A DNA stretch of 64,000 nucleotides, taken from Gammaproteobacteria bacterium (GTDB lineage: Bacteria > Pseudomonadota > Gammaproteobacteria > JAJPIJ01). Shown here in pieces: positions 1 through 63,237 of the stretch (its first letter is position 1; each line of letters opens with the position of its first letter). Under the pieces are notes generated by a model. The model ran no database searches and had not been told where the DNA came from. It was given only the letters and a program-made list of their open reading frames with translations. The DNA is taken from the NCBI GenBank assembly GCA_022072255.1, contig JAJVHZ010000061.1, positions 26,207 through 90,206 on the forward strand. Direction: 5' to 3'. A program made the translations under genes and the position numbers.

Positions 1-245
1 TCGCCGCCCAGGTCCTCACCCCGGTCGATATCGAGCGGCGGTTCGGCATGACCGGCGGACACTGGCACCACGGCGAACTGGCACTCGATCAGTTTCTCAT
101 GCTGAGACCGGCGCCCGGTGCGGCGCAATATGCGACGCCGCTGCCGGGGCTTTATCTCTGCGGCGCCGGCGCGCATCCGGGCGGCGGCGTCATGGGCAGC
201 GTCGGAAGGAACGCGGCCGGCGCGATCCTCAGCGGAGCAGCATGA
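1..245 (+). CDS. NAD(P)/FAD-dependent oxidoreductase (CrtI/phytoene-desaturase-like amine/CH-CH oxidoreductase), 3' end only; 5' end lies outside the window
   Basis: The frame is open from position 1. The C-terminal motif LYLCGAGAHPGGGVMGSVGRNAA is the conserved FAD-binding tail of CrtI-family oxidoreductases. The stop codon overlaps the next start (ATGA). Confidence 0.55.
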   Translation, partial: AAQVLTPVDIERRFGMTGGHWHHGELALDQFLMLRPAPGAAQYATPLPGLYLCGAGAHPGGGVMGSVGRNAAGAILSGAA

Positions 246-1435
246 CGATGAACACCGGGCACTTTCGCACACCGTTGCTGCACACGCCCTTTCATACCCG
301 CCTCGTCGCGGCCAGCACCTGCAACGAGTGGTACGCGTGGAAGGGTTACACGGCGCCGGCGCGGCTGACGGAGGTGGAATTCGAGTACTTCGCAATCCGC
401 AGCAGCGCCTCGATCTTCGACATCACGCCGCTGACGAAGTACCGCATCCGCGGCCCGGACTGCATTGCCTATTTCAACCGCCTGCTGACGCGCGACATCG
501 TCGCGCTGGCGGTGGGTCGGGTCGCGTACTGCCTGTGGTGCGACGACGCCGGGCGGCTCATCGACGACGGCACCCTGTTTCGTCTTGCCGAACAGGACTA
601 CCGGCTCTGCTCGCAGGAGCGGCATTACGACTGGTTGCGGACGTCGGCGCTCGGCTTCGACGTCAGCATCGAGGAGGAGACCGAACATGTCGCTGCGCTG
701 GCCCTGCAGGGCCCGACGTCCTGCGCCGTGCTGAAGGCTCTCGGCATCGGGGCCATCGAGATGCTCAAGCCTTTTCACCTGCTCAACGCCTCCCTGCACG
801 GACGCGATCTCATGATCTCCCGCACCGGTTTCACGGGCGACCTGGGCTATGAGCTGTGGATGCAGCCGGATACCGCCGGCGGCCTCTGGGATGCCGTGAT
901 GGAGGCGGGACGCAATTACGCCATCATGCCGATCGGCAGCGAGGCGCTCGACATGGCGCGTATCGAGGCCGGTTTCATCCAGGCCAACGTCGACTTCGTG
1001 CCGGCGGATCAGGCGGTGCGCCCGGGCCGAGGCCGATCCCCTTTCGAGCTGGGGCTGGCCGGTCATGTGGATTTCCGCAAGGCGAACTTCACCGGCCGGC
1101 GGGCATTGCTGGAGGAACAGCGCCGCGGGTCGCGTTACCAGCTGGTGAAACTGGACATCGACGGCAGCACGCCGGCGAAGGATTCCTTCGTCTACCTTCG
1201 CCGGCGCAAGGTCGTGGGACACGTGACCTCGGCCGTATGGTCGCCTACCGCCAAGACGAACATCGCATTGGCCTCGCTGCAGACTCCTTACGGCACGCAG
1301 GGCGATGACCTATGGGTGGAGATCTACTACAAGCGCGAACTGAAATGGGAACGGAAGATGGCTCGCTGCCGGATCGTGGCGGAGACGTTTTACGATCCGC
1401 CAAGACGGCGGCAGACGCCGGCGGCGAACTATTGA
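242..1435 (+). CDS. aminomethyltransferase-family protein (GcvT fold; DmdA-like tetrahydrofolate-dependent demethylase candidate)
   Basis: 397 aa with GcvT-family motifs (FDITPLTKYRIRG, RTGFTGDLGYELW, a C-terminal barrel). The start overlaps the upstream stop (ATGA). Confidence 0.85.
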   Translation: MTMNTGHFRTPLLHTPFHTRLVAASTCNEWYAWKGYTAPARLTEVEFEYFAIRSSASIFDITPLTKYRIRGPDCIAYFNRLLTRDIVALAVGRVAYCLWCDDAGRLIDDGTLFRLAEQDYRLCSQERHYDWLRTSALGFDVSIEEETEHVAALALQGPTSCAVLKALGIGAIEMLKPFHLLNASLHGRDLMISRTGFTGDLGYELWMQPDTAGGLWDAVMEAGRNYAIMPIGSEALDMARIEAGFIQANVDFVPADQAVRPGRGRSPFELGLAGHVDFRKANFTGRRALLEEQRRGSRYQLVKLDIDGSTPAKDSFVYLRRRKVVGHVTSAVWSPTAKTNIALASLQTPYGTQGDDLWVEIYYKRELKWERKMARCRIVAETFYDPPRRRQTPAANY

Positions 1436-3561
1436 AATCGCCGACGGCGCCCCCGGCGCGGCGTCTGGACGCGTTGTTGCGGCCCCGATCTATCGCAGTC
1501 GTCGGTGCCACGCCTCGCGAAGGTGCCGTCGGCAATCAGACCCTGCGCAACCTGATCCAGGGCGGCTACGGCGGGGCGCTGTACGCGATCAACCCGCGCC
1601 ACCGCGAGATCCACGGGGTTCCCTGTTTTGCCGGCTTCACCGATCTGCCGGGAAAGGTGGAGCACGCGATCTTCACGCTCGGCGACGCGCGCATCGAAGC
1701 AGCCCTCGAGGACGCCATACGTCATGGCGTGCGCGCCGTGACGCTGCTGTCGGCGCTGGTGCTGGACAACGACCGCGATCCGCCCCTGCGCGAACGCGTG
1801 CGGGCACGACTGCGGCGCGCCGGTATCGTCGCCTGCGGCGGCAACGGCATGGGCTTCTGCAATTTCACCGATCGCGTCTGGGCCTACGGTTTCGAGACGC
1901 GGCATCACGGCGACCGCGGCAACGTCGCGCTCATCAGCCACTCCGGGGCCGGCCTGTGCGGCATCCTCGACACCGATGAACGGTTGCGATTCAACCTGGC
2001 GATCTCTCCGGGGCAGGAACTGTCGGTCACGATGGCCGATTATCTCGATTTCGCGCTGGAGCAGCCCGAGACGCGTGTGGTCGGACTGTTCATGGAGACC
2101 GTCCGCGATCCCGACGCCATGATTCGCGCGTTCGAGAAGGCTCGCCGTCGATCGATCCCGATCGTGGCGATCAAGGTGGGGCGCACCGAGATGGCCGCGC
2201 GTCTTGCGGTATCGCACTCCGGGGCGATGGCGGGATGCGATGCGAGTCATGACGCGCTGTTCGATCGTTACGGGATCCAGCGCGTACGCGACATGGACGA
2301 GCTGGCGGCCGCGCTTGTCATGTTCGCACAACCGCACCCGGTCGCGGCCGGAGGTCTGGTAAGCGTTCACGACTCCGGCGGCGAACGACAGTTGCTCATC
2401 GACGTGGCCGCGGAGCTGAAGGTGCCGCTGGCCGAGCTCTCCGCCGACACGGCCGGGAAGCTCGCCGCGAGGCTCGATCCCGGGCTGCCGGCCGTCAATC
2501 CTCTCGACGCCTGGAGCGCCGGCGGCTCGGAGGCGCACAGGACGATCGGCGACTGTTTCGCGACCATGCTGAGTGACTCCGCGGCCGCGCTCGGCGCGGT
2601 GGTGCACGATCGCGTTGCGGACGGGCGCATCTATCCGGGTTACGCCGGCTATCTGCAGCAGGCGCACGCCGCCACCGGCAAACCGGTGTTTCTCGTCGCC
2701 AATCACCAGGGCACCGGCGCGGATCCGCTGGTGACGCAGCTCACCGAAAAGGGCTTCCCGGTGCTGGACGGGCTGGTGCCGTTCCTCGTCGGCGCGCGCT
2801 GCCTCATGGCCTACCGCGACTTCACGCAGCGCGTGCAGTCCCCGCCCCCGGAAGTCGATCCCGCGATCCTCGAGAAGTGGCGGCGGCGACTCGCCAGTGA
2901 AGAGCGGCCGGACGAGGCGACGAGCATGGAACTGCTGGCGGCGGCGGGTCTGCCGATGAACCGGGGCCTGCTGGCGGAGGATGAGTCGGCGGCGGTCGCG
3001 GCGGCGGCGGCGATCGGCTTCCCCGTCGTGGTGAAGACGGCGCGCGCCGATGTCGCGCACAAGACGGAGCTGCGCGGCGTGATCCTCGACGTCGCCGACG
3101 AGGCGGACTGCCGCGAAGCCTATCGCTCGCTCGCGCGGCGGCTGGGCGGGCGCGTGCTGGTTGCGCCGCTGATCCGCGATCCGGGGGTGGAGATGATCCT
3201 CGGGGTGGTCAATGACGCGCAGTTCGGGCCCCTGGTCATGCTCGGCTTCGGCGGCGTCCATGCCGAGGTCCTGCAGGACGTGCGCTTCGCGCTTCCGCCG
3301 TTCGGCGCGGCCACGGCCCGCCGCCTGCTCGACACCCTGCGCATGCGTGCGCTGCTCGATGGCAGCCGCGGCGCGCCGGCGCCGGACATCGACGCATATT
3401 GCCTGGCCGCCGCGCGCCTGTCGGTGATCGCGCATTCCCTGCGCGAGGTGATCGCCGAGATCGATCTCAACCCGGTCATCCTGAGCGCGGCGGGATGCAT
3501 CGCCGTCGACGCCCTGATCGTCACGCGCGCGCGGCCACACCACAGCGGGGCGCGCCCGTGA
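1432..3561 (+). CDS. ADP-forming acyl-CoA synthetase (acetate--CoA ligase family; CoA-binding domain plus ATP-grasp domain)
   Basis: The N-terminal CoA-binding Rossmann domain (SIAVVGATPREGAVGNQTLRNLIQGGYGG) and a C-terminal ATP-grasp domain are present. I chose the TTG at 1432 as start because it overlaps the GcvT stop; the longer ORF from 1312 would overlap the previous gene by 120 nt. Confidence 0.8.
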   Translation: MKSPTAPPARRLDALLRPRSIAVVGATPREGAVGNQTLRNLIQGGYGGALYAINPRHREIHGVPCFAGFTDLPGKVEHAIFTLGDARIEAALEDAIRHGVRAVTLLSALVLDNDRDPPLRERVRARLRRAGIVACGGNGMGFCNFTDRVWAYGFETRHHGDRGNVALISHSGAGLCGILDTDERLRFNLAISPGQELSVTMADYLDFALEQPETRVVGLFMETVRDPDAMIRAFEKARRRSIPIVAIKVGRTEMAARLAVSHSGAMAGCDASHDALFDRYGIQRVRDMDELAAALVMFAQPHPVAAGGLVSVHDSGGERQLLIDVAAELKVPLAELSADTAGKLAARLDPGLPAVNPLDAWSAGGSEAHRTIGDCFATMLSDSAAALGAVVHDRVADGRIYPGYAGYLQQAHAATGKPVFLVANHQGTGADPLVTQLTEKGFPVLDGLVPFLVGARCLMAYRDFTQRVQSPPPEVDPAILEKWRRRLASEERPDEATSMELLAAAGLPMNRGLLAEDESAAVAAAAAIGFPVVVKTARADVAHKTELRGVILDVADEADCREAYRSLARRLGGRVLVAPLIRDPGVEMILGVVNDAQFGPLVMLGFGGVHAEVLQDVRFALPPFGAATARRLLDTLRMRALLDGSRGAPAPDIDAYCLAAARLSVIAHSLREVIAEIDLNPVILSAAGCIAVDALIVTRARPHHSGARP

Positions 3562-5084
3562 ACCTCGCCGCCGCGCGAGCGCTCACCCGGGAGGACTGGC
3601 AGGCGATGACCGCGCGCCTGCGGCCCGAGACGCGTCTGCTGATCGATGGCGCCTTCGTGGAATCGATTGCCGGCGGCGAATTCGAGACCGTCAACCCGGC
3701 CGATGGCAGCGTCCTGGCGACGGTCTCCTGCGCCACCGGCGCCGACGTCGACCGCGCCGTCGCCTCGGCGCGGCGAGCGTTTCGATCCGGATGCTGGGCG
3801 CGCCTGCCGCCGCGTCGACGCATGGAGATCCTGTATCGGTGGTGCGAGCTGATAGCGGCGCAGGCCGCGGACCTCGCGCTGCTGGACACGCTCGACATGG
3901 GCAAGCCCATCGCGGACGCCTTGAACGTCGATCTGCCCGCCGTGATCGACACCGTCCGCTTCATGGCGGAATGCGTCGACAAGGTCGAGGGCGCGGTCAC
4001 CAGCACGGCGGCAGACGTCATGCATTTCGTGCTGCGCGAGCCGCTGGGCGTGGTGGCGGCCATCTCGCCGTGGAATTACCCGTTGCTGATGGCGGCCTGG
4101 AAGGTGGCGCCGGCGCTGGCGGCGGGCAATGCCGTGGTCCTGAAGCCCGCCGAACAGTCACCGCTCAGTGCCCTGCAACTGGCGCGGCTCTTCCTGGAGG
4201 CAGGCGGACCGCCCGGGGTCTTCAACGTCGTGAACGGACCGGGCGAGGTCACGGGCAGGGCGCTCGCACTGCATCCGGAGGTGGCCAAGGTGAGTTTCAC
4301 GGGCTCGACCGCCGTCGGCAAGCTGATGCTGCAGTACGCCGGCCTTTCGAACATGAAGCGCGTGGCGCTCGAGTGCGGCGGCAAGTCCCCGCAGATCTTC
4401 ATGGCCGACACCCCCGATCTCGATCGCGCCGTGACGGCGGCCTGCAACGGCATCTTCGCCAACATGGGCGAGGTCTGCAATGCCGGGTCGAGACTGCTCG
4501 TCGATCGCCGGATACATGAGCAGTTCGTGGACCGGTTCATCGCGGCGAGCGAGCACGCATACCGACCCGGCGACCCCCTGGATCCCGCCACCAGCATGGG
4601 GCCGCTCATCGATCGCGAGGCTCAGCGCCGCGTCCTGGGTTTCATCGAGACCGCTCGGCACCAGGGGGCGCGGCTGCGCTTCGGGGGCGACGTGCCGTCC
4701 GGGCTGGAGGGCGGCGCCTACGTCAACCCCACCCTGTTCACGGGCGTGAACAACGGCATGACGATCGCCCGCGAGGAGATCTTCGGGCCGGTCGCATGCG
4801 TCATCCCGTTCGAGGATCTCGACGCCGCGATCGGCATCGCCAACGACACGATATACGGACTCGCCGCGGGGATCTGGACGCGCGATCTCGCCGCCGCACA
4901 CCGGCTCATCCGCGAGATCGAGGCTGGCGTGCTGTGGGTGAACTGTTTCGACGAGGGCGACATGACCCAGCCCTTCGGCGGCTACAAGCAGTCAGGCAAC
5001 GCCAGGGACAAGTGTTTCGACAGCCTGCTCAGCTACACGCAGACGAAGTCGGCATGGCTTCGGATCGCGCAACCTTCGGGATGA
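3558..5084 (+). CDS. NAD(P)+-dependent aldehyde dehydrogenase
   Basis: ALDH-superfamily motifs are present (FTGSTAVGKLM, the catalytic EC GGKSP context, and the ELGGK-like region LECGGKSPQIF). I chose the GTG at 3558 (GTGA overlap with the upstream stop), which gives a protein of about 509 aa, typical for ALDHs. Confidence 0.9.
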   Translation: MNLAAARALTREDWQAMTARLRPETRLLIDGAFVESIAGGEFETVNPADGSVLATVSCATGADVDRAVASARRAFRSGCWARLPPRRRMEILYRWCELIAAQAADLALLDTLDMGKPIADALNVDLPAVIDTVRFMAECVDKVEGAVTSTAADVMHFVLREPLGVVAAISPWNYPLLMAAWKVAPALAAGNAVVLKPAEQSPLSALQLARLFLEAGGPPGVFNVVNGPGEVTGRALALHPEVAKVSFTGSTAVGKLMLQYAGLSNMKRVALECGGKSPQIFMADTPDLDRAVTAACNGIFANMGEVCNAGSRLLVDRRIHEQFVDRFIAASEHAYRPGDPLDPATSMGPLIDREAQRRVLGFIETARHQGARLRFGGDVPSGLEGGAYVNPTLFTGVNNGMTIAREEIFGPVACVIPFEDLDAAIGIANDTIYGLAAGIWTRDLAAAHRLIREIEAGVLWVNCFDEGDMTQPFGGYKQSGNARDKCFDSLLSYTQTKSAWLRIAQPSG

Positions 5085-5091
5085 GGATTCC

Positions 5092-5913
5092 ATGTCCACA
5101 CTGATCTACACGGTCGACGGTCCGGTCGCGCTGCTGACCCTGAATCGCCCGGAGAAGCTCAATGCCGTCAGCAACCGGATGGTGGCGGAACTGAACGCGG
5201 CGCTGGATCGCGCCGAGGCCGACGGCGCGGTCCGCGCCATCGTCCTCAACGGCGCCGGACGCGCCTTCTCCGCGGGATTCGACCTGGACACCGGGGAGGA
5301 AGGGTCCGGGCGCGACGTCGACGCCCTGCGGCGCATGCTGCGGCGGGATTTCGACGTGATCATGCGCTTCTGGCATTCGCCGAAACCGACGCTGGCGGCC
5401 GTGCACGGCCATTGCCTCGGCAGCGGAATGGAGATGGCGCTCGCCTGCGATCTGACGATCGCGGGTAGCGGCTGCCGGTTCGGCGCCCCGGAGGTGCAGT
5501 TCGGCAGCGGCATCATCACCATGATCATCCCCTGGCTCGTCGGGGCGAAGTTCGCCAAGGAATTGCTGATGGTCGGCGACGATCAGGTGTCCGCCGAACG
5601 TGCCGTGGCGATGGGTCTGATCAACCGCGTGGTCGCCGATGCGGCGGTGCTGGACACGACGCTGGCCATGGCGCGCGACATCGCCACCAATGGTCGCCTC
5701 GCGGTCGCGCTCACCAAGCAGGCGCTCAATCGCAGCTACGATATCATGGGAATGCGCCAGGCGATGGAGCAGGCGCTGGAACTGGACGTGATCGTCGAGG
5801 CGAGCGATACACCGGAGTCACGGGCGTTCTACGACATGGTGGCCAGCCAGGGCGCCAAGGCGGCGATTGCGTGGCGTCGGGCCCGCATCCTCAACTCCTC
5901 GCCGTCGACGTGA
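5092..5913 (+). CDS. enoyl-CoA hydratase/isomerase (crotonase superfamily)
   Basis: 273 aa with the crotonase fold signature (LNRPEKLNAV, AFSAGFDLD, GHCLGSGMEMALACD). GAGGA lies 7 nt upstream of the ATG. Confidence 0.9.
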   Translation: MSTLIYTVDGPVALLTLNRPEKLNAVSNRMVAELNAALDRAEADGAVRAIVLNGAGRAFSAGFDLDTGEEGSGRDVDALRRMLRRDFDVIMRFWHSPKPTLAAVHGHCLGSGMEMALACDLTIAGSGCRFGAPEVQFGSGIITMIIPWLVGAKFAKELLMVGDDQVSAERAVAMGLINRVVADAAVLDTTLAMARDIATNGRLAVALTKQALNRSYDIMGMRQAMEQALELDVIVEASDTPESRAFYDMVASQGAKAAIAWRRARILNSSPST

Positions 5914-5917
5914 ATCC

Positions 5918-7360
5918 ATGAGCACGAACAGGTCGGGGGGTAAAAGGAACGAGCCGGCACCACGGCGCGGCGGCCGGCGCGGTGCCGGTCCCACCGCGGC
6001 CCTCGATCGCCTGCTCGAACTTCACCCGCGGACCGAACTCATCGAGGTGCTGTTCGCCGACATCAACGGCATGCTGCGCGGCAAGCGCGTTGGCCGTGAG
6101 GACTTCCGGAAGGTCTTCGAGCCCGGCGTCAGCCTGCCCGGCGCGACCGCCCTGCTCGACAGCAAGGGCATGACCATCGATGCCATCAGCAATGGCAGCG
6201 CCGACGGCGATCCCGACATGATCTGCCGGCCCATCCCTGGCACCACCGCGGCGGTGCCCTGGGCGATGCGCCCCACGGCGCAGACGATGGTCAGCATGTA
6301 CGGCATCAGGGGCGAGCCCTATTTCGCCGACTCCCGGCACGTGCTGGAGCATGCGATGAGACCACTGGCAAAAATGGGGCTGAGGCCGGTGGTCGCCATC
6401 GAGCTGGAGTTCTACCTGCTCGACGGCGCTGCCGCCGAGACGCCGCGGCCGCGACTGGGTCGGATCCCGGGCACCTCCCTGCCTCAGGACGGTCCGCAGT
6501 ACAACAGCCTCGATGACCTTGCCGACCTCGACGCGTATTTCGCCGACGTGGATGCCGCCTGCCGGGAACAGGATATACCCGCGAGCGCGGCGCTGGCGGA
6601 ATTCGCGCCCGGCCAGTACGAGATCAATCTTCATCACGTCGATGATCCGCTGCTGGCCTGCGCGCATGCCCTGATGCTGAAGCGGGTGGTCAAGGGTGTG
6701 GCGCGCCGGCACGGGATGGGCGCATGCTTCATGGCGAAGCCGTTTGCCGAGAGCGCAGGATCCGGAATGCACGTGCACGTCAGCCTGCTCGATTCCAGGG
6801 GTCGTAACGTCTTTGCGGGCGCGGACGGCGACAGCGGCGGTCTGCCGATCTCCAGGCAACTGCGTCACGCCGTCGGGGGGCTGGTCGCAACCATGGACGA
6901 GGGCATGGCGATCTTCGCACCCAATGCGAATTCCTATCGCCGGATGCGACCTGCCTCGTTCGTCCCGCTGACCCCGAACTGGGGCATAAATCATCGCCGG
7001 CTTGCACTGCGCATACCGCTGGCGGCGGCCAGCGACATGCGGGTGGAGCATCGTGTCGCCGGCGCCGATGCCAATCCCTACCTGGTGATGGCGGCGGTAT
7101 TGGGCGGCATACATCATGGCCTCACGCGGCGTTGCGAGCCGGGGCCGATGGTGCCGGCGGGCGCCGTGATCGATGAGGTCATCACACTGCCCACGCGCTG
7201 GGAGCAGGCCCTCGGCGCATTTGAACGCGGTTCGGTGCTGCCGGGATACCTGGGCGAGGATTTCGCGCGCATCTATGCGATCTGCCGGCGCGGGGAGTGC
7301 GAGCGATTCCATGCCGAGATCGGCCGCCAGGACTACGAATGGTACCTGCGCAACGTTTAG
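5918..7360 (+). CDS. glutamine synthetase family protein (type III / PuuA-GmaS-like gamma-glutamyl-amine ligase)
   Basis: GS catalytic-domain motifs are present (ELEFYLLD, MHVHVSLLD, the NSYRRM-like region). The ATG at 5918 lies 5 nt after the crotonase stop; the upstream ORF extension would overlap the crotonase. Confidence 0.85.
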   Translation: MSTNRSGGKRNEPAPRRGGRRGAGPTAALDRLLELHPRTELIEVLFADINGMLRGKRVGREDFRKVFEPGVSLPGATALLDSKGMTIDAISNGSADGDPDMICRPIPGTTAAVPWAMRPTAQTMVSMYGIRGEPYFADSRHVLEHAMRPLAKMGLRPVVAIELEFYLLDGAAAETPRPRLGRIPGTSLPQDGPQYNSLDDLADLDAYFADVDAACREQDIPASAALAEFAPGQYEINLHHVDDPLLACAHALMLKRVVKGVARRHGMGACFMAKPFAESAGSGMHVHVSLLDSRGRNVFAGADGDSGGLPISRQLRHAVGGLVATMDEGMAIFAPNANSYRRMRPASFVPLTPNWGINHRRLALRIPLAAASDMRVEHRVAGADANPYLVMAAVLGGIHHGLTRRCEPGPMVPAGAVIDEVITLPTRWEQALGAFERGSVLPGYLGEDFARIYAICRRGECERFHAEIGRQDYEWYLRNV

Positions 7361-7399
7361 GATCGGGCCTCGACGCCACCATCATCCGGAGCGAATCGC

Positions 7400-8407
7400 A
7401 TGCGGCACGGTAATGCGGCCGACAACTTCCGCGCGCTCGTCGTCACCACGACGGAGAGCGGTCCCGGCCTCGAGGTGAGGCAGCTGGACCGGGACTTTCT
7501 CATGGAGGGCGACGTCACGATCGCAGTCGATCACTCCACGCTGAACTACAAGGACGGGCTGGCCCTCACCGGCCGGGCGCCGATCCTGCGCGTCTCGCCG
7601 ATGATCCCGGGAGTCGATCTCGCCGGGACCGTGGAGAGTTCGCAGCACCCGGACTACGCGCCCGGGGACAAGGTGGTGCTGAACGGCTGGGGTGTGGGTG
7701 AACGGCATCACGGCGGCTACGCGCAGCTCGCGCGCGTCAGGGGTGAGTGGCTGATCCCGCTGCCGGATCGCCTCTCGACGCGCCAGGCCATGGCCATCGG
7801 CACTGCGGGCTATACCGCCATGCTTTGCGTGACGGCCCTCGAGCGGGACGGCCTGCAGCCGGAATCCGGGCCGGTGCTGGTCACCGGCGCGGCCGGCGGT
7901 GTCGGCAGCCTCGCCGTCGCGCTGCTTGCGGGACGCGGGTACACGGTCACTGCCTCCACCGGCCGCATGGAGGAATCGCCGTATCTGCAGGCGCTGGGAG
8001 CCTCGGCCGTGATCGGGCGCGAGGAGCTTCAGACTCCCGTGAAGCCGCTGGCGAAGGAGCGCTGGGCCGGCGCCGTGGATTGCGTCGGCGGCACGACGTT
8101 GGCCAACGTGCTGTCGCAAACGCGTTATGGCGGCAGCGTGACGGCCTGCGGGCTGGCCGGCGGGATGGACCTGCCGGCGACGGTGGCGCCCTTCATACTC
8201 CGCGGCGTGCATCTGCTGGGTGTCGATTCCGTGATGGCGCCGCGCCAGGCTCGCCTGCGCGCGTGGCGGAGCCTGGCCGCGGAGATCGATCTCGGAAAGC
8301 TGGAATCGATGACGCGCACCATTGCGATCGACGAGTTGCCTGCGGCTGCCGCCGACATGCTCGCCGGCAAGGTTCGTGGCCGTATCGTGGTCGACGTCAA
8401 CGCCTGA
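7400..8407 (+). CDS. yhdH: YhdH/AcuI-family NADPH:acrylyl-CoA reductase (MDR-superfamily quinone-oxidoreductase fold)
   Basis: It aligns essentially end-to-end with E. coli YhdH (TLNYKDGLA, MIPGVDLAGTV, GWGVGE.HHGGYA, TGAAGGVGS, ACGLAGG). Confidence 0.9.
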   Translation: MRHGNAADNFRALVVTTTESGPGLEVRQLDRDFLMEGDVTIAVDHSTLNYKDGLALTGRAPILRVSPMIPGVDLAGTVESSQHPDYAPGDKVVLNGWGVGERHHGGYAQLARVRGEWLIPLPDRLSTRQAMAIGTAGYTAMLCVTALERDGLQPESGPVLVTGAAGGVGSLAVALLAGRGYTVTASTGRMEESPYLQALGASAVIGREELQTPVKPLAKERWAGAVDCVGGTTLANVLSQTRYGGSVTACGLAGGMDLPATVAPFILRGVHLLGVDSVMAPRQARLRAWRSLAAEIDLGKLESMTRTIAIDELPAAAADMLAGKVRGRIVVDVNA

Positions 8408-8431
8408 GCACGGCGGCGCGCAACCGCCTCG

Positions 8432-9691
8432 CTAGATGGCGCGCGTGGGCGGCTGCTCCGGGGGGGAGTCCACCGTCGATTGCAGCCCGCCGGCGGCTTC
8501 GGGCAGCACGCCGCGGGTAATCGGCATCATGCGCGCCACCACCAGCGTCACACCGGCGGCGAGCACGAGCAGCGCGATCGGGAAGGTCCGGGCGTCGAGG
8601 AAATCCATGCCGGCGCCGATCATCACCGCACCGAGGAATCCGCCGAGACACCATCCGGTCACGAGGCTGGCGCTGGCAACCGGCAGCTGCACGCGCCCGA
8701 CGATCTTGCCGGCGAGCGCCAGCGCCGCGCCATAGATGCTGAAGCAGGCGGGGCCGAAGAGGAAGGTGAGCGCGAGCAGGACTCCGGGCTGCAGCAGCTC
8801 GGCCCTCGTCAGTGCCAGCGAATACAGCACGATGTACACGGAAAGTATTCGCATCAGCCTCCTCTCCCCCATCCTGTCGGCGAGGTATCCCAGCGGCAGC
8901 AGCAACACCACCTGCCCCCACACGAACACCGTCAGCGCGAACAGCGAGAGGTGATCGGAATACCCTGCCGTGCGCAGGTAGGGTGTCAGCAGCGACCACG
9001 CGGAATTGTCGAGCGCACCGGTCAGGATCCCCAGAGCGATCACCCAGGGCAGCCGGCGGCCGATCTCGACGAATCGTCGCAGCGATACCGGGTGCTGGCC
9101 GACGCTGGCCTGCCGGTCATCCGGGAGGAAGACAGCCGCCGGGACCGTCGCCACGCACATCGCGGCGGCCGCCACCAGGAAGAATCCGGCCGGTTCCAGA
9201 TGGCCGGCATTGACGATGATCGGCCCGGTGGCGAAGCCCAGCGACTGCACGGAGAGGTACAGGGCATTGATGCGATTCCGCACGGCATGCTCAAAGGCGC
9301 CGTTGATCCACGTCTCCGCCGCCACGTAGAACAGCCCGAAAGCGGCGCCCTGCAAGGTCTCCGCGACCAGCCACAGCCAGAATGCGTCCGGGACGGCCAG
9401 CAACGCAATCGCCACGCCCGAGGCCAGCAGCGCGAGCACCGCGCACACGCGCGTGCCGAGACGCCGGAGCATCTCCGGATAGCGGTGTGAGAAGAAGATC
9501 AGCGACAGTGCCCACATGTTCAACAGCAGCGCCGTGCGTGTGGACGCCGCCTGAAACTCCGCGAGGGTGTTGATCAGCGTGGCGTACGACAGGCTCAGAC
9601 CCGTGTTCGCCACAAAGGCGGTGAACAGCACCCCCACCAGCATGGGAAGCCGGGCGTACCTGTCGGACTGTCTTTCGGTGTTCATGACCAT
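8432..9691 (-). CDS. MFS transporter
   Basis: 419 aa with about 12 predicted hydrophobic helices and MFS loop motifs. It lies downstream of, and on the same strand as, the two Rieske genes. Confidence 0.8.
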   Translation of the reverse strand: MVMNTERQSDRYARLPMLVGVLFTAFVANTGLSLSYATLINTLAEFQAASTRTALLLNMWALSLIFFSHRYPEMLRRLGTRVCAVLALLASGVAIALLAVPDAFWLWLVAETLQGAAFGLFYVAAETWINGAFEHAVRNRINALYLSVQSLGFATGPIIVNAGHLEPAGFFLVAAAAMCVATVPAAVFLPDDRQASVGQHPVSLRRFVEIGRRLPWVIALGILTGALDNSAWSLLTPYLRTAGYSDHLSLFALTVFVWGQVVLLLPLGYLADRMGERRLMRILSVYIVLYSLALTRAELLQPGVLLALTFLFGPACFSIYGAALALAGKIVGRVQLPVASASLVTGWCLGGFLGAVMIGAGMDFLDARTFPIALLVLAAGVTLVVARMMPITRGVLPEAAGGLQSTVDSPPEQPPTRAI

Positions 9692-9779
9692 GCTGGCTGT
9701 CGCCTCGTCGCGCCGGCCGCGGATCCCGCCGGGAAGCCAGGGCGGTCGTCCGGACTCGATTGCGGCCGACGCCGCGTCG

Positions 9780-10976
9780 TCAGGACATGCGTTCGTTGCA
9801 GGCCGCGACGGTGCCGCGCCGTGGCGCTTCCCTCAGCCGGCTGACCGGCAATGTCGCCCGCATCCTGGCCGCATAGGCGCGCAGGCAGATCTCGTTGCGT
9901 CCCAGGATGCCGTCCCTGAAGCTGCTCGAAGTCACGCCCGCCTGCACGCGCTCGATGAGGTCCTTGTCCTCGATGCCGACGCGCCGGTTGATCCGCAGGT
10001 TGAGCGCCCGGGCCGTCCTCATCCCGGCGCGCTCGTCCGGGAAACCATAGGCGGCGTCACGCATCAGCGTCTCGGTCGGCGACAGCGGCAGGAACTGCAG
10101 AAACTCGACCTGGTCCGGGTAGAGGTTGAACGTGAGATTCGGCCACAGCAGGTAATACAGCCACATCCGCCGGTACCTCTCCGGCAGATATTCGACCGCC
10201 GGCAGCACCTTCCTGTAGACGCGTACGCTCAGACCGGCGCGCGGCAGATCCTCCACCGACCCCGACAGGCGGTAGACCGATTCCGTCCTGACCTCCATGC
10301 CGTAGGTGTTCCCGACCAGGCTGTCGAGGCCGCGATGCGCCACCCGTACGTGCAGCGCGTCTATGTAGTTGTCGCTGGCATTCTTCCAGTTCGTCTGGCA
10401 ACGCCGGCCGGAAACGCCTCCGAGCGGTTGCAGGGACTCGATGCGGTAAAGGCGCATCTCGGGCGCCATCGGTGCGGCGCTCTCCGCCAGGTCCATGGGG
10501 CCGCTGGTGAACCGGATGAAGACGAAGCCCAGGAACACGTCGCAGTCGATCGGCACCAGTCCGTAATCACCGTCGTTGATCTGCGGGTATTGAGTCTTGA
10601 ACGGAATGCCCGCCAGCTTGCCCTCGAAGGTGTAACTCCAGGCATGATACGGACAGGTGATGTGGCGTTCGCAGCGGCCGCGATCGCCGTCCAGCAGTCG
10701 CGCCGCCCGATGACGGCACACATTGTGGAACGCGCGCAGCGCTCCTGCTTCGTCGCGAATTACGATCGCGGATTCGCCGAGCAGCGAGAACGTGTGGTAA
10801 TCGCCCGCTGCCGGGATGTCATTGCCGTGGCAGACCAGCTGCCAGGTGCGCATGAAGACCCGTTCGCGCTCGAGCTCGAAGAATTCCTGGTCGTAGTACG
10901 TCCACGCCGGCAGCGTACGGTCGCCCGAATCGTGCTCGGGGGAAGGTGCCGGTTCCACGGGGCGGACGAGGTCCAT
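9780..10976 (-). CDS. Rieske non-heme iron oxygenase alpha subunit (GbcA/Stc2/CntA-like monooxygenase/demethylase class)
   Basis: It has the Rieske motif CRHRAARL...CPYHAW and a mononuclear-iron motif D-x2-H-x4-H (DALHVRVAH). I trimmed the start to MDLVRP (the 50-aa upstream extension has no support). Confidence 0.85.
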   Translation of the reverse strand: MDLVRPVEPAPSPEHDSGDRTLPAWTYYDQEFFELERERVFMRTWQLVCHGNDIPAAGDYHTFSLLGESAIVIRDEAGALRAFHNVCRHRAARLLDGDRGRCERHITCPYHAWSYTFEGKLAGIPFKTQYPQINDGDYGLVPIDCDVFLGFVFIRFTSGPMDLAESAAPMAPEMRLYRIESLQPLGGVSGRRCQTNWKNASDNYIDALHVRVAHRGLDSLVGNTYGMEVRTESVYRLSGSVEDLPRAGLSVRVYRKVLPAVEYLPERYRRMWLYYLLWPNLTFNLYPDQVEFLQFLPLSPTETLMRDAAYGFPDERAGMRTARALNLRINRRVGIEDKDLIERVQAGVTSSSFRDGILGRNEICLRAYAARMRATLPVSRLREAPRRGTVAACNERMS

Positions 10977-11002
10977 GCGTACACCTTGCCGGCGCGTGCG
11001 CC

Positions 11003-12898
11003 TCAGCGCCCCGCCCTCGCCAGAGCCTCGTTGCGCAGCGCCACGCTGCCCGCCGGCGGCGCCTGCAGCAGCATGCAGGCCGGCAGGCGTTCGCGGATCC
11101 AGTCCTGGAAGCGCTTCACGAGACATTCCTTGTCCGAGAGGATGCCCACGTCATAGGCACTGGTCGCCAGCCCGCGTTGCACCGAGTGAGTGAGCAGGTT
11201 GTCCTCGGCCTGCACGCGCATGTTGATGCGGTCGCTCAGGTACCGCGCTGCCCTGGTCTCGCGCCGACCGTCCGGCAGGCCATAGGAGCGGCCGCGCAGC
11301 ATGACGCGCCCGGCGGCCAGCGGGATCATCTGGAAGAAATCCATCTTCTCCGGGAAGAGATCAAGAAAGGTGTTCGGGAACATCGCGTAGTACGTCCAGC
11401 GCGTCTGCATGTGCGCAGGCAGATGTTCATACCTGGGCAGGAGCTTGCGGTACAGGTGCGTGCTCCAGTTCCTGTCGGCCCTCTCACGCATCTCGTGACT
11501 GAGCCGAATCACGCCGGTTCCTGCATATTCACGGTCGTACTGCCTCTTCATCAGTGCGAACAGTCCGCGATGGCCCGACGGAAAGTGGTAGTCCTCGACA
11601 TAGTTCTCCATCCCGTTCTTCCAGTCCATCGCCACCGTCTCTTCCCAGAACCGGCGATCGCTGTATCGATCGTTCGTCGGCACCATGTCGGCCGTGCGGT
11701 AGGTCGCGAACTCCTCCGCGTACGGAGCGAACTGTTCGGCCACCGACGCCCCCCCCGTCCTGATCCGCACGAAAACGAAACCCAGGAACACCTCGCAGTC
11801 GAGGCCCTTGAGGCCGAATCTCGAGGCGTCGTGCTTGCGGAAGCTGTCCGGGGCCGGGAGGCCGTGACGGCTGCCGTCGAGACTGTAGGTCCAGCCGTGG
11901 TAGGGGCAGACCATGCGTCCGGTCTTGCAGTGGCCGCTCTGCCCCTGCACCACGGCATGCGCCCGATGACGGCAGACGTTGTGGAAGGCGCGGATCTCGC
12001 CCTCTTCCCCGCGAACCACGAACAGGCGCTCGTTCAGCAGCTCGAAGGTCACGTAATTACCGGGCTGCGGCATGTCGCTGACATGGCAGACGAGCTGCCA
12101 CGACGGCATGAAGATGTGCTCCTTCTCCAGCGCGAGGAATTCGTCGTTGCCATACACCCACGCCGGCAGCGTGTAGATCAGACCCCCCTGCGACACCGGT
12201 GCCATCGCCTCGGGCTCGCCGGGCAGCGCGCGGGCCTCTTCCCGCGTGGCGGAACCGGCCGCCGGCAGCTCGAATCGCCACGGAAACAGGCTGGCGAGAA
12301 ACGCCTGGCAGCGCCTGCGGGCGGCGGCGCGATCGAACTTCTCCCCCGTGAACATGATCTCCTGCCACAGCTCGTCGACGAGGCCCACCAGTCCATAGGC
12401 GATGGCCTCGGCGTCGAGACGCACGCTGTTCTGGGGGTCGCGGGTCATGCGCTCGCAAAGCTGCAGCACCGTGCGGAAGTAGGCGGCGTCGCGGTCGCCG
12501 CACAGTTGCTGATAGTCCTGTCGGGCGCGTGACTCCGACATGAAGGCGTACCACACGGCCACCTTGCGCGGCTCCGTCAGTTCCGGATCGAGGTTGACGT
12601 CGATGATGTCCAGCAGCGTCTGCGCGGGATCCTCACCGGCATTCTCGAGACAGCGCGCGATCGCCTGTTCGAACTCCTCGGCCACGCTGCGCAAGGTGGC
12701 GAGCAGGAGCGACTCCTTGCTGGTGAAATGAAAATTGACCGTGCCTGCGGTGAGGCCCGCCAGGGCGGTGATCTTGGCGAGCGTCAGGTTGGAGATGCCA
12801 TGCTCGAAGATCGCGGTCATGGTGGCATCGATCAGGCGCTGCTTGCTCTCCGGGATCGGCGTCGATGTTCCCGGCTGACGGTTCTCGACTATGGCCAT
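11003..12898 (-). CDS. fusion protein: N-terminal TetR-family HTH regulator domain (about 210 aa) plus C-terminal Rieske non-heme iron oxygenase alpha subunit (about 400 aa)
   Basis: This is a single uninterrupted ORF. Residues about 20-232 are a TetR fold (helix-turn-helix LTLAKITALAGLTAGTVNFHFTSKESLL plus ligand-binding helices). Residues about 251-650 are paralogous to the adjacent Rieske protein (CRHRAHAV...CPYHGW; EDYHFPSGH). AGGAGA lies 6 nt upstream of the ATG at 12898. An internal Met with a weak GAGG SD at 12205 could also allow a stand-alone Rieske product. Confidence 0.75.
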   Translation of the reverse strand: MAIVENRQPGTSTPIPESKQRLIDATMTAIFEHGISNLTLAKITALAGLTAGTVNFHFTSKESLLLATLRSVAEEFEQAIARCLENAGEDPAQTLLDIIDVNLDPELTEPRKVAVWYAFMSESRARQDYQQLCGDRDAAYFRTVLQLCERMTRDPQNSVRLDAEAIAYGLVGLVDELWQEIMFTGEKFDRAAARRRCQAFLASLFPWRFELPAAGSATREEARALPGEPEAMAPVSQGGLIYTLPAWVYGNDEFLALEKEHIFMPSWQLVCHVSDMPQPGNYVTFELLNERLFVVRGEEGEIRAFHNVCRHRAHAVVQGQSGHCKTGRMVCPYHGWTYSLDGSRHGLPAPDSFRKHDASRFGLKGLDCEVFLGFVFVRIRTGGASVAEQFAPYAEEFATYRTADMVPTNDRYSDRRFWEETVAMDWKNGMENYVEDYHFPSGHRGLFALMKRQYDREYAGTGVIRLSHEMRERADRNWSTHLYRKLLPRYEHLPAHMQTRWTYYAMFPNTFLDLFPEKMDFFQMIPLAAGRVMLRGRSYGLPDGRRETRAARYLSDRINMRVQAEDNLLTHSVQRGLATSAYDVGILSDKECLVKRFQDWIRERLPACMLLQAPPAGSVALRNEALARAGR

Positions 12899-12959: not shown

Positions 12960-12977
12960 CATTCAATTCGTTGAATG
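12960..12977. promoter_or_regulatory. inverted repeat CATTCAA-N4-TTGAATG (candidate TetR-type operator) about 60 bp upstream of the fusion-gene start, flanked by further ATTCA half-sites at 12950-12957 and 12990-12996
   Basis: The arms are perfect 7-bp repeats read directly from the sequence. The position upstream of a TetR-domain gene fits the usual autoregulatory arrangement. Confidence 0.35.
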
Positions 12978-13215
12978 CCTGTTTAGAACATTCATCCAAC
13001 AGTTCGCGACCTCGTCGGGGCCCCTCGGATCCAGGGTACGGCCACAGGTTATCGGTTTGGCAGGTGCCGGGACCGGGGTGTGTGCCCGTGGCTGCGGGCA
13101 TCGCTGCGGGGGCGGAGAGGTTCGGGCGGCGGAGAGAACCTCAGAGATTCTCGAAGATAATATAAAACATAGCTTATTATCAATATAGTATCTGCATTAA
13201 CTAACGTATTTTCGA

Positions 13216-61394: not shown

Positions 61395-63152
<1,758 letters not shown>

Positions 63153-63237
63153 TGTCTTGTTCCCCTCTGCACCTGAACCGCGAAGTTCCCTCGAGGCGAT
63201 GGCGCGCCCCCGCGCGCCCGGTGTCGCCGCCGGTCCG

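Follow-up and report, generated by a model that had tools for sequence, protein, structure and literature searches.

The closest frame for the island described here is the Puu/Pau polyamine pathway (PuuA-PuuB-PuuC-PuuD of E. coli, PauA-D of Pseudomonas, GlnA2/GlnA3 of Streptomyces), and no Puu/Pau cluster with GcvT-like, CrtI-like, ADP-forming acyl-CoA synthetase (ACD), crotonase, AcuI or group V Rieske genes was described in the literature searched. The aniline and 1-naphthylamine systems (TdnQTA1A2B, AtdA1-A5, DcaQTA1A2B, NpaA1) have a glutamine synthetase (GS)-family ligase beside a Rieske oxygenase. In the isopropylamine pathway, IpuC is a gamma-glutamylisopropylamide synthetase and a P450 acts on the gamma-glutamyl amide, an example of an aliphatic amine being glutamylated and the conjugate then oxygenated. 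Group V Rieske monooxygenases (CntA, choline monooxygenase, OxyBAC; GbcA/BmoA, Stc2) are alpha-only, and the characterised members use free quaternary amines, not gamma-glutamyl conjugates (PMC7948474). The DddX/AcuI/AcuH route takes DMSP to acryloyl-CoA and propionyl-CoA, and in a beta-amino acid route of Pseudomonas sp. SBV1 the CoA ligase BvaA is followed by crotonase-family BvaB1/BvaB2, which expel the beta-carbon nitrogen and so yield an enoyl-CoA (PMC4619459).

The window (the whole 64-kb stretch of DNA that was analysed) holds the right-hand two thirds of a roughly 19-kb island, which we take to be catabolic for a cationic polyamine-type amine. Genes were called from codon-position GC and Pfam/NCBIfam scans, and the features of the island are as follows.

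6–233, plus strand: 3′-terminal part of a CrtI/amine-oxidase-like FAD oxidoreductase gene, second of a tandem pair (68% identical over 76 aa to the L041 homologue by tblastn)
242–1435, plus strand: GcvT-like folate-dependent one-carbon transfer protein (Pfam GCV_T, E=2e-54, and GCV_T_C)
1477–3561, plus strand: ACD, DddX-like (CoA_binding_2, Succ_CoA_lig and ATP-grasp_5 domains)
3558–5084, plus strand: PuuC-like aminoaldehyde dehydrogenase (Aldedh, E=6e-165)
5092–5913, plus strand: crotonase, enoyl-CoA hydratase family (ECH_1, E=1e-47)
5918–7360, plus strand: predicted PuuA-family gamma-glutamyl-amine ligase, the GS-like gene (480 aa; Gln-synt_C, E=7e-85)
7400–8407, plus strand: predicted AcuI, NADPH-dependent acrylyl-CoA reductase (NCBIfam equivalog acrylyl_AcuI, 496 bits against a curated cut-off of 440)
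8432–9691, minus strand: MFS transporter, last gene of the convergent operon (MFS_1)
9780–10976, minus strand: Rieske oxygenase alpha Rk1, predicted group V, quaternary-ammonium type (398 aa; Rieske and Ring_hydroxyl_A domains)
11003–12898, minus strand: BetI-type TetR (about 12200–12898) fused to Rieske alpha Rk2 (about 11003–12166) in a single stop-free ORF of 631 aa
12961–12976, no strand assigned: perfect 16-nt palindrome ATTCAATTCGTTGAAT, candidate operator of the TetR::Rieske operon (sole match in the 64 kb)

The plus-strand operon is tightly packed and runs in the order transaminase, two flavoproteins, GcvT-like protein, DddX-like CoA ligase, PuuC-like aldehyde dehydrogenase (ALDH), crotonase, ligase and AcuI. 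The ligase is thus the eighth gene of a conserved operon, which is cut by the start of the window. Both tandem FAD oxidoreductase genes, whose products match Pfam Amino_oxidase and the NCBIfam CrtO-like family, are complete in the relatives L086 and L097. An acyl-CoA dehydrogenase and a FadB-like protein are also encoded upstream.

The ligase is 40% identical to E. coli PuuA, compared with 24% to GlnA, 29% to IpuC, 27% to GmaS, 26–30% to NpaA1/DcaQ and 27–30% to TdnQ-type proteins. Its metal, ATP and glutamate ligands are all intact, while Asp50 and Glu327 of the ammonium site and Tyr397 of the adenylylation site show precisely the replacements seen in PuuA, and its NCBIfam score falls below the GlnA and type III cut-offs. 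Although the best PDB sequence match is NpaA1 (8wwu), the protein lies in the PuuA clade, and on its sequence it is a member of the PuuA family and not a GlnA, a GlnT/GmaS or a TdnQ. Its expected reaction joins glutamate to an amine as a gamma-glutamyl amide at the expense of ATP. The initial annotation had suggested that an amine is gamma-glutamylated and had named clustering with GlnA or GlnT as the first thing that would count against its proposal; the protein sits with PuuA, away from both, and that objection therefore falls away.

The GcvT-like protein and the ALDH, which had been suggested as possibly handling one-carbon and aldehyde products, are indeed co-operonic with the ligase. For the former, the top NCBIfam match (271 bits) is to the GcvT part at the C-terminus of TMAO demethylase, and the protein falls short of the cut-offs set for DmdA (136 bits against 410) and for true GcvT. 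The ALDH and E. coli PuuC share 46% identity over 490 aa, and the top NCBIfam match of the ALDH is PuuC (536 bits, under the family cut-off). What the earlier proposal had not considered is the putative acryloyl-CoA branch to which the DddX-like CoA ligase, the crotonase and AcuI point. The start of the ACD gene is a TTG, placed by analogy with 694-aa relatives; among PDB entries the ACD matches the DMSP lyase DddX best (7cm9, 242 bits), ahead of 4-hydroxybutyrate- and 3-hydroxypropionate-CoA ligases. His292 and Trp391 of DddX (the phosphohistidine and the cation-pi residue) are kept, but Phe435 and the proposed elimination base Glu432 are both replaced by Tyr. AcuI is, by its equivalog score, bona fide. 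The crotonase is a candidate acryloyl-CoA hydratase or beta-aminoacyl-CoA amine lyase; its stop codon lies 4 nt from the ligase start, the two genes adjoin in 19 loci, and in many loci they are spaced by 4 nt or overlap. Unlike the DMSP route, the operon has no BCCT transporter or DddB/DddC context and is built around amine-handling enzymes. The likeness to the SBV1 route (a CoA ligase, then crotonase-family nitrogen expulsion) is a parallel by analogy only; BvaA is an AMP-forming enzyme of the phenylacetate-CoA ligase type, and the CoA ligase here is ADP-forming.

On the opposite strand, a convergent operon carries the two Rieske alpha genes reported in the initial annotation, and their proximity to the GS-like gene is borne out: from the ligase stop (7360) it is 2.4 kb to the nearest Rieske gene, whose 3′ end is at 9780, and the AcuI and MFS stop codons are separated by 24 nt. 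The MFS gene keeps the same position in L086, L088 and L097. The CxH...CxxH residues that hold the cluster and the two-His motif for iron are intact in both Rieske proteins. In the PDB, Rk1 matches CntA best, and the Rk1 motifs (CxH..CxxH; N-Y-I-D-A-L-H....H) include a Tyr at the position of CntA Tyr203, the role of which is taken from PMC7948474. These features (best sequence and fold matches, and the N-Y-x-E/D-x-x-H motif with the clade Va Tyr and bridging carboxylate) place Rk1 and Rk2 among the alpha-only group V quaternary-ammonium oxygenases, CntA-like, with a cation-binding Tyr, and not among enzymes of the aniline-dioxygenase type; the aniline enzyme has Ala in place of that Tyr. They differ from described group V systems in their low identity to CntA and Stc2 (20–25% in Foldseek alignments), in the lack of an adjacent CntB-/GbcB-type reductase gene, in the TetR fusion of one copy, and in having a gamma-glutamyl ligase operon as genomic partner instead of a betaine or carnitine cluster. 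The initial proposal is supported in part; the locus is not a relative of the aniline-dioxygenase systems invoked for it, given the ligase's distance from the TdnQ-type/NpaA1/DcaQ enzymes, the CntA-like alpha-only oxygenases, and a window without the beta subunit, the reductase or the LysR regulator of the reference cluster.

The second Rieske ORF carries an N-terminal TetR domain, which the initial annotation did not mention. All four Pfam domains were found in it, and the same TetR::Rieske architecture occurs in all of the best 120 database matches. The AF2 model (pLDDT 86.6) shows two folded domains joined by a disordered linker (residues 215–228), with TM scores of 0.82–0.85 between the Rieske half and CntA. 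Across 30 homologues, no variation occurs in the HTH residues or in the ligands of the cluster and the iron, and the fusion is a conserved, undescribed family. Among three further homologues, two adjoin the same ligase operon or are some 3 kb away from it; the third (L099) has GATase, ALDH and ornithine/arginine decarboxylase neighbours and no ligase within 8 kb. The fused protein probably represses its own operon until substrate appears. The palindrome ATTCAATTCGTTGAAT lies 63 nt upstream of the fusion ATG at 12898, and a related ATTCA/TGAAT-rich sequence occupies the corresponding position in L086, L088 and L006, consistent with a role as operator. Each operon has its own BetI-like TetR regulator and the palindromes are arranged differently, which argues slightly against simple co-regulation.

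Domain scans and tblastn of the 64 kb agree with the earlier statement that no amidotransferase-like hydrolase, oxygenase beta subunit or reductase is visible. No TdnT-like amidotransferase or PuuD-like protein was found either; neither Achromobacter DcaB, DcaA2 and DcaT nor E. coli PuuD and PuuB, used as queries, had a hit in the window at E<=1e-4, and the ORFs scanned past 13.2 kb belong to housekeeping families or had no match. A Rieske reductase and a gamma-glutamyl hydrolase were likewise not found in a relative of 88–89% identity (L097).

Among the fetched loci that carry a ligase homologue, 18 of 38 operon-type loci (those sharing operon partners) have a Rieske gene no more than 12 kb away, as against 0 of 56 other PuuA-like loci (Fisher p = 4e-9; 1e-7 with near-duplicates collapsed). 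The association noted in the single window is therefore conserved, specific and beyond chance. It involves two independently recruited Rieske lineages, one convergent and one co-operonic, 23–385 nt downstream of the ligase. The latter, non-orthologous lineage directly follows the ligase in at least five marine genomes, and in L024 and L034 (both marine) the order is ligase, Rieske, PuuB-like oxidase, with a TdnT-like amidotransferase added in L024. Several operon-type loci (L013, L033, L036 and L096) have no nearby Rieske gene, and in L095 the gap is 8.7 kb. Polyamine-type neighbours recur: L097 encodes a PotF-like polyamine-binding protein upstream (414 bits), and other loci carry PotF/PotG, an agmatinase above its cut-off, gamma-glutamyltranspeptidase, a PuuB-like oxidase (40% identity), a PuuD-like hydrolase (44%) or a TdnT-like class I amidotransferase (33% to DcaT). 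Compared with Puu/Pau, then, the locus shares the active-site signature of PuuA, the PuuC-like ALDH and the neighbours of its relatives; it departs in lacking PuuB and PuuD, in the fixed operon that holds the ligase with GcvT-like, two CrtI-like, ACD, crotonase and AcuI genes, and in the group V Rieske linkage.

The reading we favour, with about an even chance of being correct, is a Puu-like gamma-glutamylation of a cationic, possibly N-methylated, di- or polyamine coupled to Rieske-catalysed C-N cleavage; the substrate, which possibly carries N-methyl groups or aminopropyl units, and the order of steps are what we infer from the gene content. After uptake of the amine, the ligase would mask one amino group as a gamma-glutamyl amide. 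The Rieske enzymes would bind the nitrogen that still carries a charge and hydroxylate the carbon next to it, and the C-N bond would break as in CntA, giving an aldehyde and a small amine or formaldehyde; this cleavage would stand in for the PuuB step of E. coli. The PuuC-like ALDH would oxidise the aldehyde to the acid, and the GcvT-like protein would pass one-carbon units to tetrahydrofolate. The CoA ligase would then activate a three-carbon acid part, and either this ligase or the crotonase would eliminate the nitrogen substituent to give acryloyl-CoA, which AcuI would reduce to propionyl-CoA; crotonase-family enzymes can eliminate ammonia from beta-aminoacyl-CoA (PMC4619459). Against this scheme stand the operon-type loci without a nearby Rieske gene, the Tyr at the Glu432 position, the lack of a Rieske reductase and of a gamma-glutamyl hydrolase in the window and L097, the preference of known group V enzymes for free quaternary amines, and the separate TetR regulators with their differently arranged palindromes. 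In the isopropylamine precedent, it is a cytochrome P450 and no Rieske enzyme that oxygenates the gamma-glutamyl conjugate.

The same substrate preference would fit an opposite order, possible if rather unlikely, in which the Rieske and flavoprotein/GcvT module first dealkylates a free methylated or quaternary amine, and the ligase then acts on the resulting primary amine or traps the amine that the crotonase releases from a CoA thioester. The BetI type of the regulators points to an effector resembling choline or betaine, the close or overlapping crotonase and ligase genes suit capture of a released amine, and the glycine-betaine pathway demethylates stepwise, with different enzyme types. However, the window has PuuA-like and PuuC-like genes but no PuuB, and therefore some enzyme must oxidise the gamma-glutamyl amine, for which the Rieske pair is the obvious candidate. 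The Rieske gene also lies between ligase and PuuB-like gene in L024 and L034, with the hydrolase gene next in L024.

That only the catabolic island is shared by two independent modules, with TetR::Rieske, Rieske and MFS forming a self-contained carnitine-, choline- or betaine-like oxygenase module and the plus-strand operon serving an unrelated amine or acrylate-type substrate, is improbable. Separate regulators and palindromes, convergent transcription, operon-type loci where the Rieske gene is missing or at least 8.7 kb off, and the L099 locus, with no ligase within 8 kb, would agree with it, but the linkage statistics and the second Rieske lineage inside the ligase operon do not, and even L099 retains a GATase, an ALDH and a polyamine-metabolism decarboxylase.

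There is a slim chance that this is a DMSP/acrylate island, with the GcvT-like protein corresponding to DmdA, the ACD to DddX and the crotonase to AcuH or DmdD, together with AcuI and the ALDH, and with ligase and Rieske genes as passengers. The DddX match and the bona fide AcuI favour it, against which stand the low DmdA score, the unconserved Glu432, the invariant presence of the ligase in the operon, and the polyamine-type neighbours (PotF-like, PuuC-like ALDH, PuuB-like oxidases, agmatinase); moreover, many carriers are Steroidobacteraceae and Lysobacterales MAGs, not marine DMSP specialists. An ordinary glutamine synthetase assimilating ammonia from neighbouring enzymes is scarcely credible, since its complete metal, ATP and glutamate ligands are outweighed by the higher identity to PuuA than to GlnA, the PuuA-type substitutions at Asp50, Glu327 and Tyr397 and the scores under the GlnA and type III cut-offs.

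Under the favoured reading, gamma-glutamylation followed by Rieske cleavage, the ligase and Rieske genes found together in many uncultured bacteria look like an undescribed polyamine-like breakdown route.

Since the window has a G+C content of 66%, genes were picked on the GC content of third codon positions, followed by domain scans. A plus-strand operon with tight packing (intergenic gaps of −4 to 41 nt) runs from the left edge to nt 8407, and faces a convergent minus-strand operon that encodes two Rieske oxygenase alpha subunits.

Genes of the two operons
6–233, +, CrtI/amine-oxidase-like flavoprotein (last 76 codons)
242–1435, +, GcvT-like protein
1477–3561, +, ADP-forming acyl-CoA synthetase (ACD)
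3558–5084, +, aldehyde dehydrogenase (ALDH)
5092–5913, +, crotonase (ECH)
5918–7360, +, GS-family ligase
7400–8407, +, AcuI, above the NCBI equivalog cut-off for acrylyl-CoA reductase (496 bits against 440)
8432–9691, −, MFS transporter (convergent operon)
9780–10976, −, second Rieske alpha, Rk1 (convergent operon)
11003–12898, −, TetR::Rieske fusion, with Rk2 as its Rieske half (convergent operon)

The stops of AcuI and the MFS gene converge 24 nt apart (8408–8431), and the spacer carries a short GC-rich inverted repeat (GGCGG...CCGCC) that could be a shared bidirectional terminator. Past 13.2 kb, the scanned ORFs match housekeeping families (tatD, pilZ, holB, tmk, mltG, pabC, fab genes, rne, lepA, ligA and others) or nothing. 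A strongly AT-rich stretch of ~65 nt (13150–13215), directly 3′ of the tatD stop, could represent a terminator/promoter region or the edge of the catabolic island. A curious feature of the right end is a 655-codon ORF (61395–63362, minus strand) with the unusual pairing of an isocitrate/isopropylmalate dehydrogenase domain and a C-terminal CBS domain.

The window begins inside the plus-strand operon, and the missing 5′ part was read from two relatives, L086 (87%) and L097 (88–89%, GCA_022071965.1). In both, the GcvT-like gene is preceded by two flavoprotein genes in tandem and, ahead of these, by a class III (GntE/GSA-like) transaminase gene. Upstream of the operon and divergent from it are genes for another TetR of the BetI kind, for an acyl-CoA dehydrogenase, for a polyamine-binding protein resembling PotF (414 bits) and for a FadB-like protein. 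The gene order transaminase-flavoprotein-flavoprotein-GcvT-ACD-(ALDH)-(ECH)-ligase recurs at 45–60% ligase identity in genomes of Steroidobacteraceae, Lysobacterales, Woeseiaceae, Halieaceae, Porticoccaceae and other Pseudomonadales. Database proteins belonging to the island number in the hundreds among uncultured Gammaproteobacteria (Steroidobacteraceae, Woeseiaceae, Halieaceae, Porticoccaceae and Lysobacterales). Its genomic surroundings vary by lineage, lying beside amtB-glnK in loci L006 and L101, and beside an EgtB/EgtD-like gene in L088.

The only domain match of the ligase is Gln-synt_C, and it scores under all NCBIfam equivalog cut-offs, including those for GlnA (172 bits, cut-off 429), type III GS (190 bits, cut-off 470) and GGputSyn (201, cut-off 650). 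It was compared with E. coli GlnA and PuuA, NpaA1 and the TdnQ-type DcaQ from naphthylamine/aniline plasmids, IpuC, and a GmaS/GlnT reference whose gene lies between N-methylglutamate-pathway genes. Identity is highest to PuuA (40% over 462 aa, E = 1e-113), and lower to IpuC (29%), DcaQ and NpaA1 (26–30%), GmaS (27%) and GlnA (24%). In a neighbour-joining tree with few references and a weak deep node (61/200 bootstraps), the ligase groups with PuuA and PuuA-like homologues, while GlnA, GmaS, TdnQ/NpaA1 and IpuC fall apart from that group. The metal, ATP and glutamate ligands of GlnA are all retained. The ammonium site is replaced (Asp50 to Pro/Gly, Ser53 to Thr/Ala, Glu327 to Phe) and the adenylylation residue Tyr397 is gone, changes of the same kind as in PuuA. 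The top PDB sequence match is the naphthylamine-glutamylating NpaA1 (8wwu), at a score barely above those of true GS structures. A true GS or GmaS was rejected on identity, tree position and ammonium-site residues, and the protein is predicted to be a PuuA-family gamma-glutamyl-amine ligase that is catalytically competent. The initial annotation had proposed that a GS-like ligase prepares the substrate of the nearby Rieske oxygenases, which requires a protein nearer to gamma-glutamyl-amine ligases than to GlnA/GlnT; the grouping with PuuA (deep node 61/200) and the identities of 40% versus 24–27% bear this out.

Two further features of the ligase genes were observed. The N-terminus (5918–6010) is an Arg/Gly/Pro-rich extension of ~30 aa (MSTNRSGGKRNEPAPRRGGRRGAGP...) that is variable or missing in homologues of 439–487 aa. 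In locus L100 (12746–14126), the ligase is called as a 70-aa fragment with ~1.2 kb uncalled, and a P450 and a molybdoenzyme lie between the fragment and the TetR::Rieske gene; this copy may be frameshifted or decaying.

Rk1 and Rk2 are 40% identical, and the top PDB matches of both are carnitine monooxygenase CntA, then stachydrine demethylase Stc2. The Rieske half of the fusion model aligns to CntA with a TM of 0.82–0.85. Both proteins carry the Rieske CxH/CxxH ligands, the two-His iron motif and the bridging carboxylate, and both are alpha-only, with no beta gene. Group V Rieske oxygenases are oxidisers of quaternary ammonium compounds (Quareshy et al., PMC7948474); in clade Va (CntA, choline monooxygenase, OxyBAC), the residue aligned with CntA Tyr203 is aromatic and forms a pi-cation contact, and in clade Vb (GbcA, Stc2) it is Asn (PMC7948474).

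Motif containing the CntA Tyr203 position
CntA, N-Y-M-E-C-Y-H
Stc2, N-N-R-E-C-Y-H
Rk1, N-Y-I-D-A-L-H
Rk2, N-Y-V-E-D-Y-H
RkB (marine Rieske lineage), N-Y-L-E-C-Y-H
DcaA1 (aniline dioxygenase alpha), N-A-G-D-G-Y-H

Tyr at this position is at least 90% conserved among 30 fusion homologues. By sequence, Rk1 and Rk2 are assigned to group V, including the aromatic residue of clade Va. The motif comparison points to oxygenases built to bind a cationic nitrogen that, by analogy, would hydroxylate the adjacent carbon, and not to ring-hydroxylating dioxygenases; DcaA1 carries Ala where Rk1 and Rk2 carry Tyr, and membership of the aniline-dioxygenase family was rejected. No CntB/GbcB-type reductase lies beside the oxygenase in the window or in L024, L031, L034, L041, L086 and L097, using the class I reductase DcaB as a query that very divergent reductases could escape. 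Near another TetR::Rieske gene (L099:1144–3430) is a row of genes for a third Rieske alpha of 350 aa, for a rubredoxin and for a membrane protein resembling fatty-acid desaturases/alkane hydroxylases, with TetR, GATase, AsnC regulator and ornithine/arginine decarboxylase genes close by.

The initial annotation reported the second Rieske gene but overlooked that it is a single 631-codon ORF (11003–12898, minus strand) with an N-terminal BetI-type TetR domain joined to the oxygenase alpha. In an AlphaFold (AF2) model (pLDDT 86.6), two folded domains, the helical TetR and the Rieske part, are connected by a disordered, flexible linker (residues 215–228). The architecture is found in all 120 of the 120 best database matches (52–100% identity), in independent assemblies and as one ORF in four divergent genomes, and 30 homologues show no variation in the HTH residues, the Rieske ligands or the iron ligands, so it is not an assembly artefact. 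TetR::Rieske is apparently a conserved and undescribed family. In several marine loci (L024:17212–18351, L031:12031–13155, L034:18056–19165 and L036 (c66)), the orthologous TetR domain (51–55% identity) has a GNAT acetyltransferase as its fusion partner in place of the Rieske part, and this TetR lineage seems prone to fusing with pathway enzymes. Neither fusion is described in the literature searched.

A perfect palindrome (ATTCAATTCGTTGAAT, 12961–12976), unique in the window, lies 63 nt upstream of the start of the fusion gene; related ATTCA/TGAAT-rich sequences occupy the same position in relatives, and it is a candidate operator. The window does not include the promoter of the plus-strand operon; its L097 counterpart has TGAATG-N6-CATTCA and lies beside the separate BetI-like TetR, which is 33–37% identical to the fused TetR. 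Both operon promoters have ATTCA/TGAAT palindromes with related half-sites, in opposite arrangement and each beside a different TetR paralogue.

The neighbourhood of ligase and Rieske genes is meaningful: among all loci retrieved, a Rieske gene lies ≤12 kb from the ligase, mostly within 3.2 kb, in 18 of the 38 that share operon partners, and in none of the 56 PuuA-like loci that do not (Fisher p = 4e-9, or 1e-7 with near-duplicates collapsed). Two Rieske lineages take part. TetR::Rk2 is convergent to the operon in the window clade and Steroidobacteraceae, and is 23–35 nt from the ligase in L006, L007, L012 and L101. RkB (25–35% identity to Rk1/Rk2; 277 bits on the GbcA model; PDB matches 3n0q and Stc2) is the same-strand neighbour 23–385 nt downstream of the ligase in Halieaceae, Porticoccaceae and other marine Pseudomonadales. 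Among three further TetR::Rieske homologues, one adjoins the operon, one is ~3 kb away, and one lies instead with GATase, ALDH and ornithine/arginine decarboxylase genes. In the marine loci L024 and L034, the ligase gene is followed by the Rieske gene and then by one for a PuuB-like oxidase (40% identity to PuuB); next in L024 is a class I amidotransferase (33% identity to the TdnT-type DcaT, with no PuuD match), which has a homologous GATase in L034, and a transaminase and an agmatinase follow. PuuA-like loci at 40–46% identity (Xanthomonadales, Alphaproteobacteria) are classical Pau/Puu clusters with a PuuB-like oxidase, PuuD-like peptidase C26, transaminases and PotFGHI-type transporters, and in Woeseiaceae a gamma-glutamyltranspeptidase adjoins the ligase. 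These neighbours embed the ligase family in gamma-glutamyl/polyamine chemistry.

Of known systems, the Puu/Pau gamma-glutamylation pathway comes nearest, but the window is without its PuuB oxidase and PuuD hydrolase: the E. coli queries found no match in the window or in L097, and matches only in more distant loci. A system of the aniline-dioxygenase type was also rejected. Searches by tblastn with DcaT, DcaA2 and DcaB gave no match in the window or close relatives, a TdnT-like gene occurs only in L024 and L034, and DcaQ and NpaA1, at 26–30% identity to the ligase, cluster with GlnA, GmaS and IpuC. The initial annotation was correct in placing a GS-like gene near two Rieske alphas with no amidotransferase, beta subunit or reductase in the window (ORF domain scans and tblastn). 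Its suggestion that an amidotransferase, ferredoxin and reductase lie further upstream does not hold for L097, where they are absent from the upstream genes. The aniline-dioxygenase logic that it proposed may describe how the system works, but membership of that system fails on every defining feature tested. As judged from its genes, the island appears to be new in bringing together a PuuA-type ligase, group V Rieske proteins, a folate module, an acryloyl-CoA branch and a regulator-oxygenase fusion. The cluster is undescribed in the literature searched (for the gene combination, the TetR-Rieske association, and beta-alanine betaine or polyamine routes to acryloyl-CoA).

Polyamines and methylated amines rank among the main forms in which nitrogen and carbon are exchanged in soil, sediment and sea and, to our knowledge, the fate of several such amines after the first gamma-glutamylation is still poorly defined. 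We also know of no case where a PuuA-type ligase, a quaternary-ammonium Rieske, a folate-linked one-carbon module and a DddX-like acryloyl-CoA route act together. The ALDH and E. coli PuuC share 46% identity. As the window has PuuA-like and PuuC-like enzymes but no PuuB, another enzyme must turn the gamma-glutamyl amine into gamma-glutamyl aldehyde. CntA-type chemistry converts R-CH2-N+ to R-CHO and an amine.

From the observed enzyme families and their linkage, we infer the following pathway. The ligase would glutamylate one end of a dicationic diamine, giving a zwitterion with a cationic nitrogen and a carboxylate, like known group V substrates. The Rieske enzyme would then take the place of PuuB and cleave the C-N bond at the opposite nitrogen, which would be charged and perhaps methylated, and the ALDH would act afterwards. 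Possible substrates, as guesses, are N-methylated polyamines, 1,3-diaminopropane or the aminopropyl units of spermidine, and trimethylammonio-alkylamines. Any N-methyl groups might leave as folate-bound one-carbon units, to which the GcvT-like protein, the two flavoproteins and the formyl-THF deformylase genes of some marine loci point.

The ligase and Rieske enzymes probably serve one pathway, but that the Rieske enzymes use the gamma-glutamyl conjugate is doubtful. The reverse order, with the Rieske step preceding glutamylation, uses the same enzymes and is unlikely; the missing PuuB, CntA-type chemistry and the likeness of the zwitterion to group V substrates together favour the order ligase, Rieske, ALDH. 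Less likely again is that the two modules are independent. There is a slight lean towards separate rather than shared control of the two operons, whose regulators and palindrome arrangements differ. Operon-type loci do not all carry a nearby Rieske gene: L013, L033, L036 and L096 lack one within 10 kb, and L095 has one at a distance of 8.7 kb.

AcuI needs a source of acryloyl-CoA. By sequence, the top structural relative of the ACD is the DMSP lyase DddX, then the ADP-forming 4-hydroxybutyrate- and 3-hydroxypropionate-CoA ligases. The functional residues of DddX are the phosphohistidine His292, Trp391 and Phe435 (cation-pi) and the proposed catalytic base Glu432 (PMC8163506). His292 and Trp391 are kept in the ACD, while Phe435 and Glu432 are both replaced by Tyr in an alignment that has an indel at ~425–435. 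A role of the island in DMSP metabolism, although suggested by the DddX likeness, is also of low probability, as Tyr aligns with Glu432 and the GcvT-like protein does not reach the DmdA equivalog cut-off (136 bits, cut-off 410). The DmdR paper (PMC12992908), checked for a possible regulatory connection, does not tie DmdR to this cluster. In the pathway favoured here, the DddX-like ligase and the crotonase could make acryloyl-CoA from a propionate substituted at C3, for instance an N-substituted beta-alanine. There is precedent in crotonase-family lyases that expel ammonia from beta-aminoacyl-CoA (PMC4619459), and the coupling of the crotonase and ligase genes would also fit a ligase that captures the expelled amine. 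The pathway as described rests on comparative genomics, and the case for and against it is evenly balanced.

Taken jointly, the proposal is a tentative one: that a group V Rieske enzyme, replacing PuuB, cuts a gamma-glutamylated aliphatic amine in a widespread, undescribed pathway of the polyamine type leading to acryloyl-CoA, and that TetR::Rieske is a 'trigger enzyme' that would both sense and oxidise the compound. Such a Rieske enzyme would be the aliphatic counterpart of the aniline-dioxygenase logic. TetR::Rieske lends itself to direct testing as a regulator fused with an enzyme of the pathway it controls. If the proposal is true, the substrate range of group V Rieske oxygenases would reach beyond betaines, and there would be a second case, after aniline dioxygenase, of glutamylation readying an amine for a Rieske enzyme. 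It would also provide a new source of acryloyl-CoA, and hence a new role for AcuI outside DMSP metabolism.
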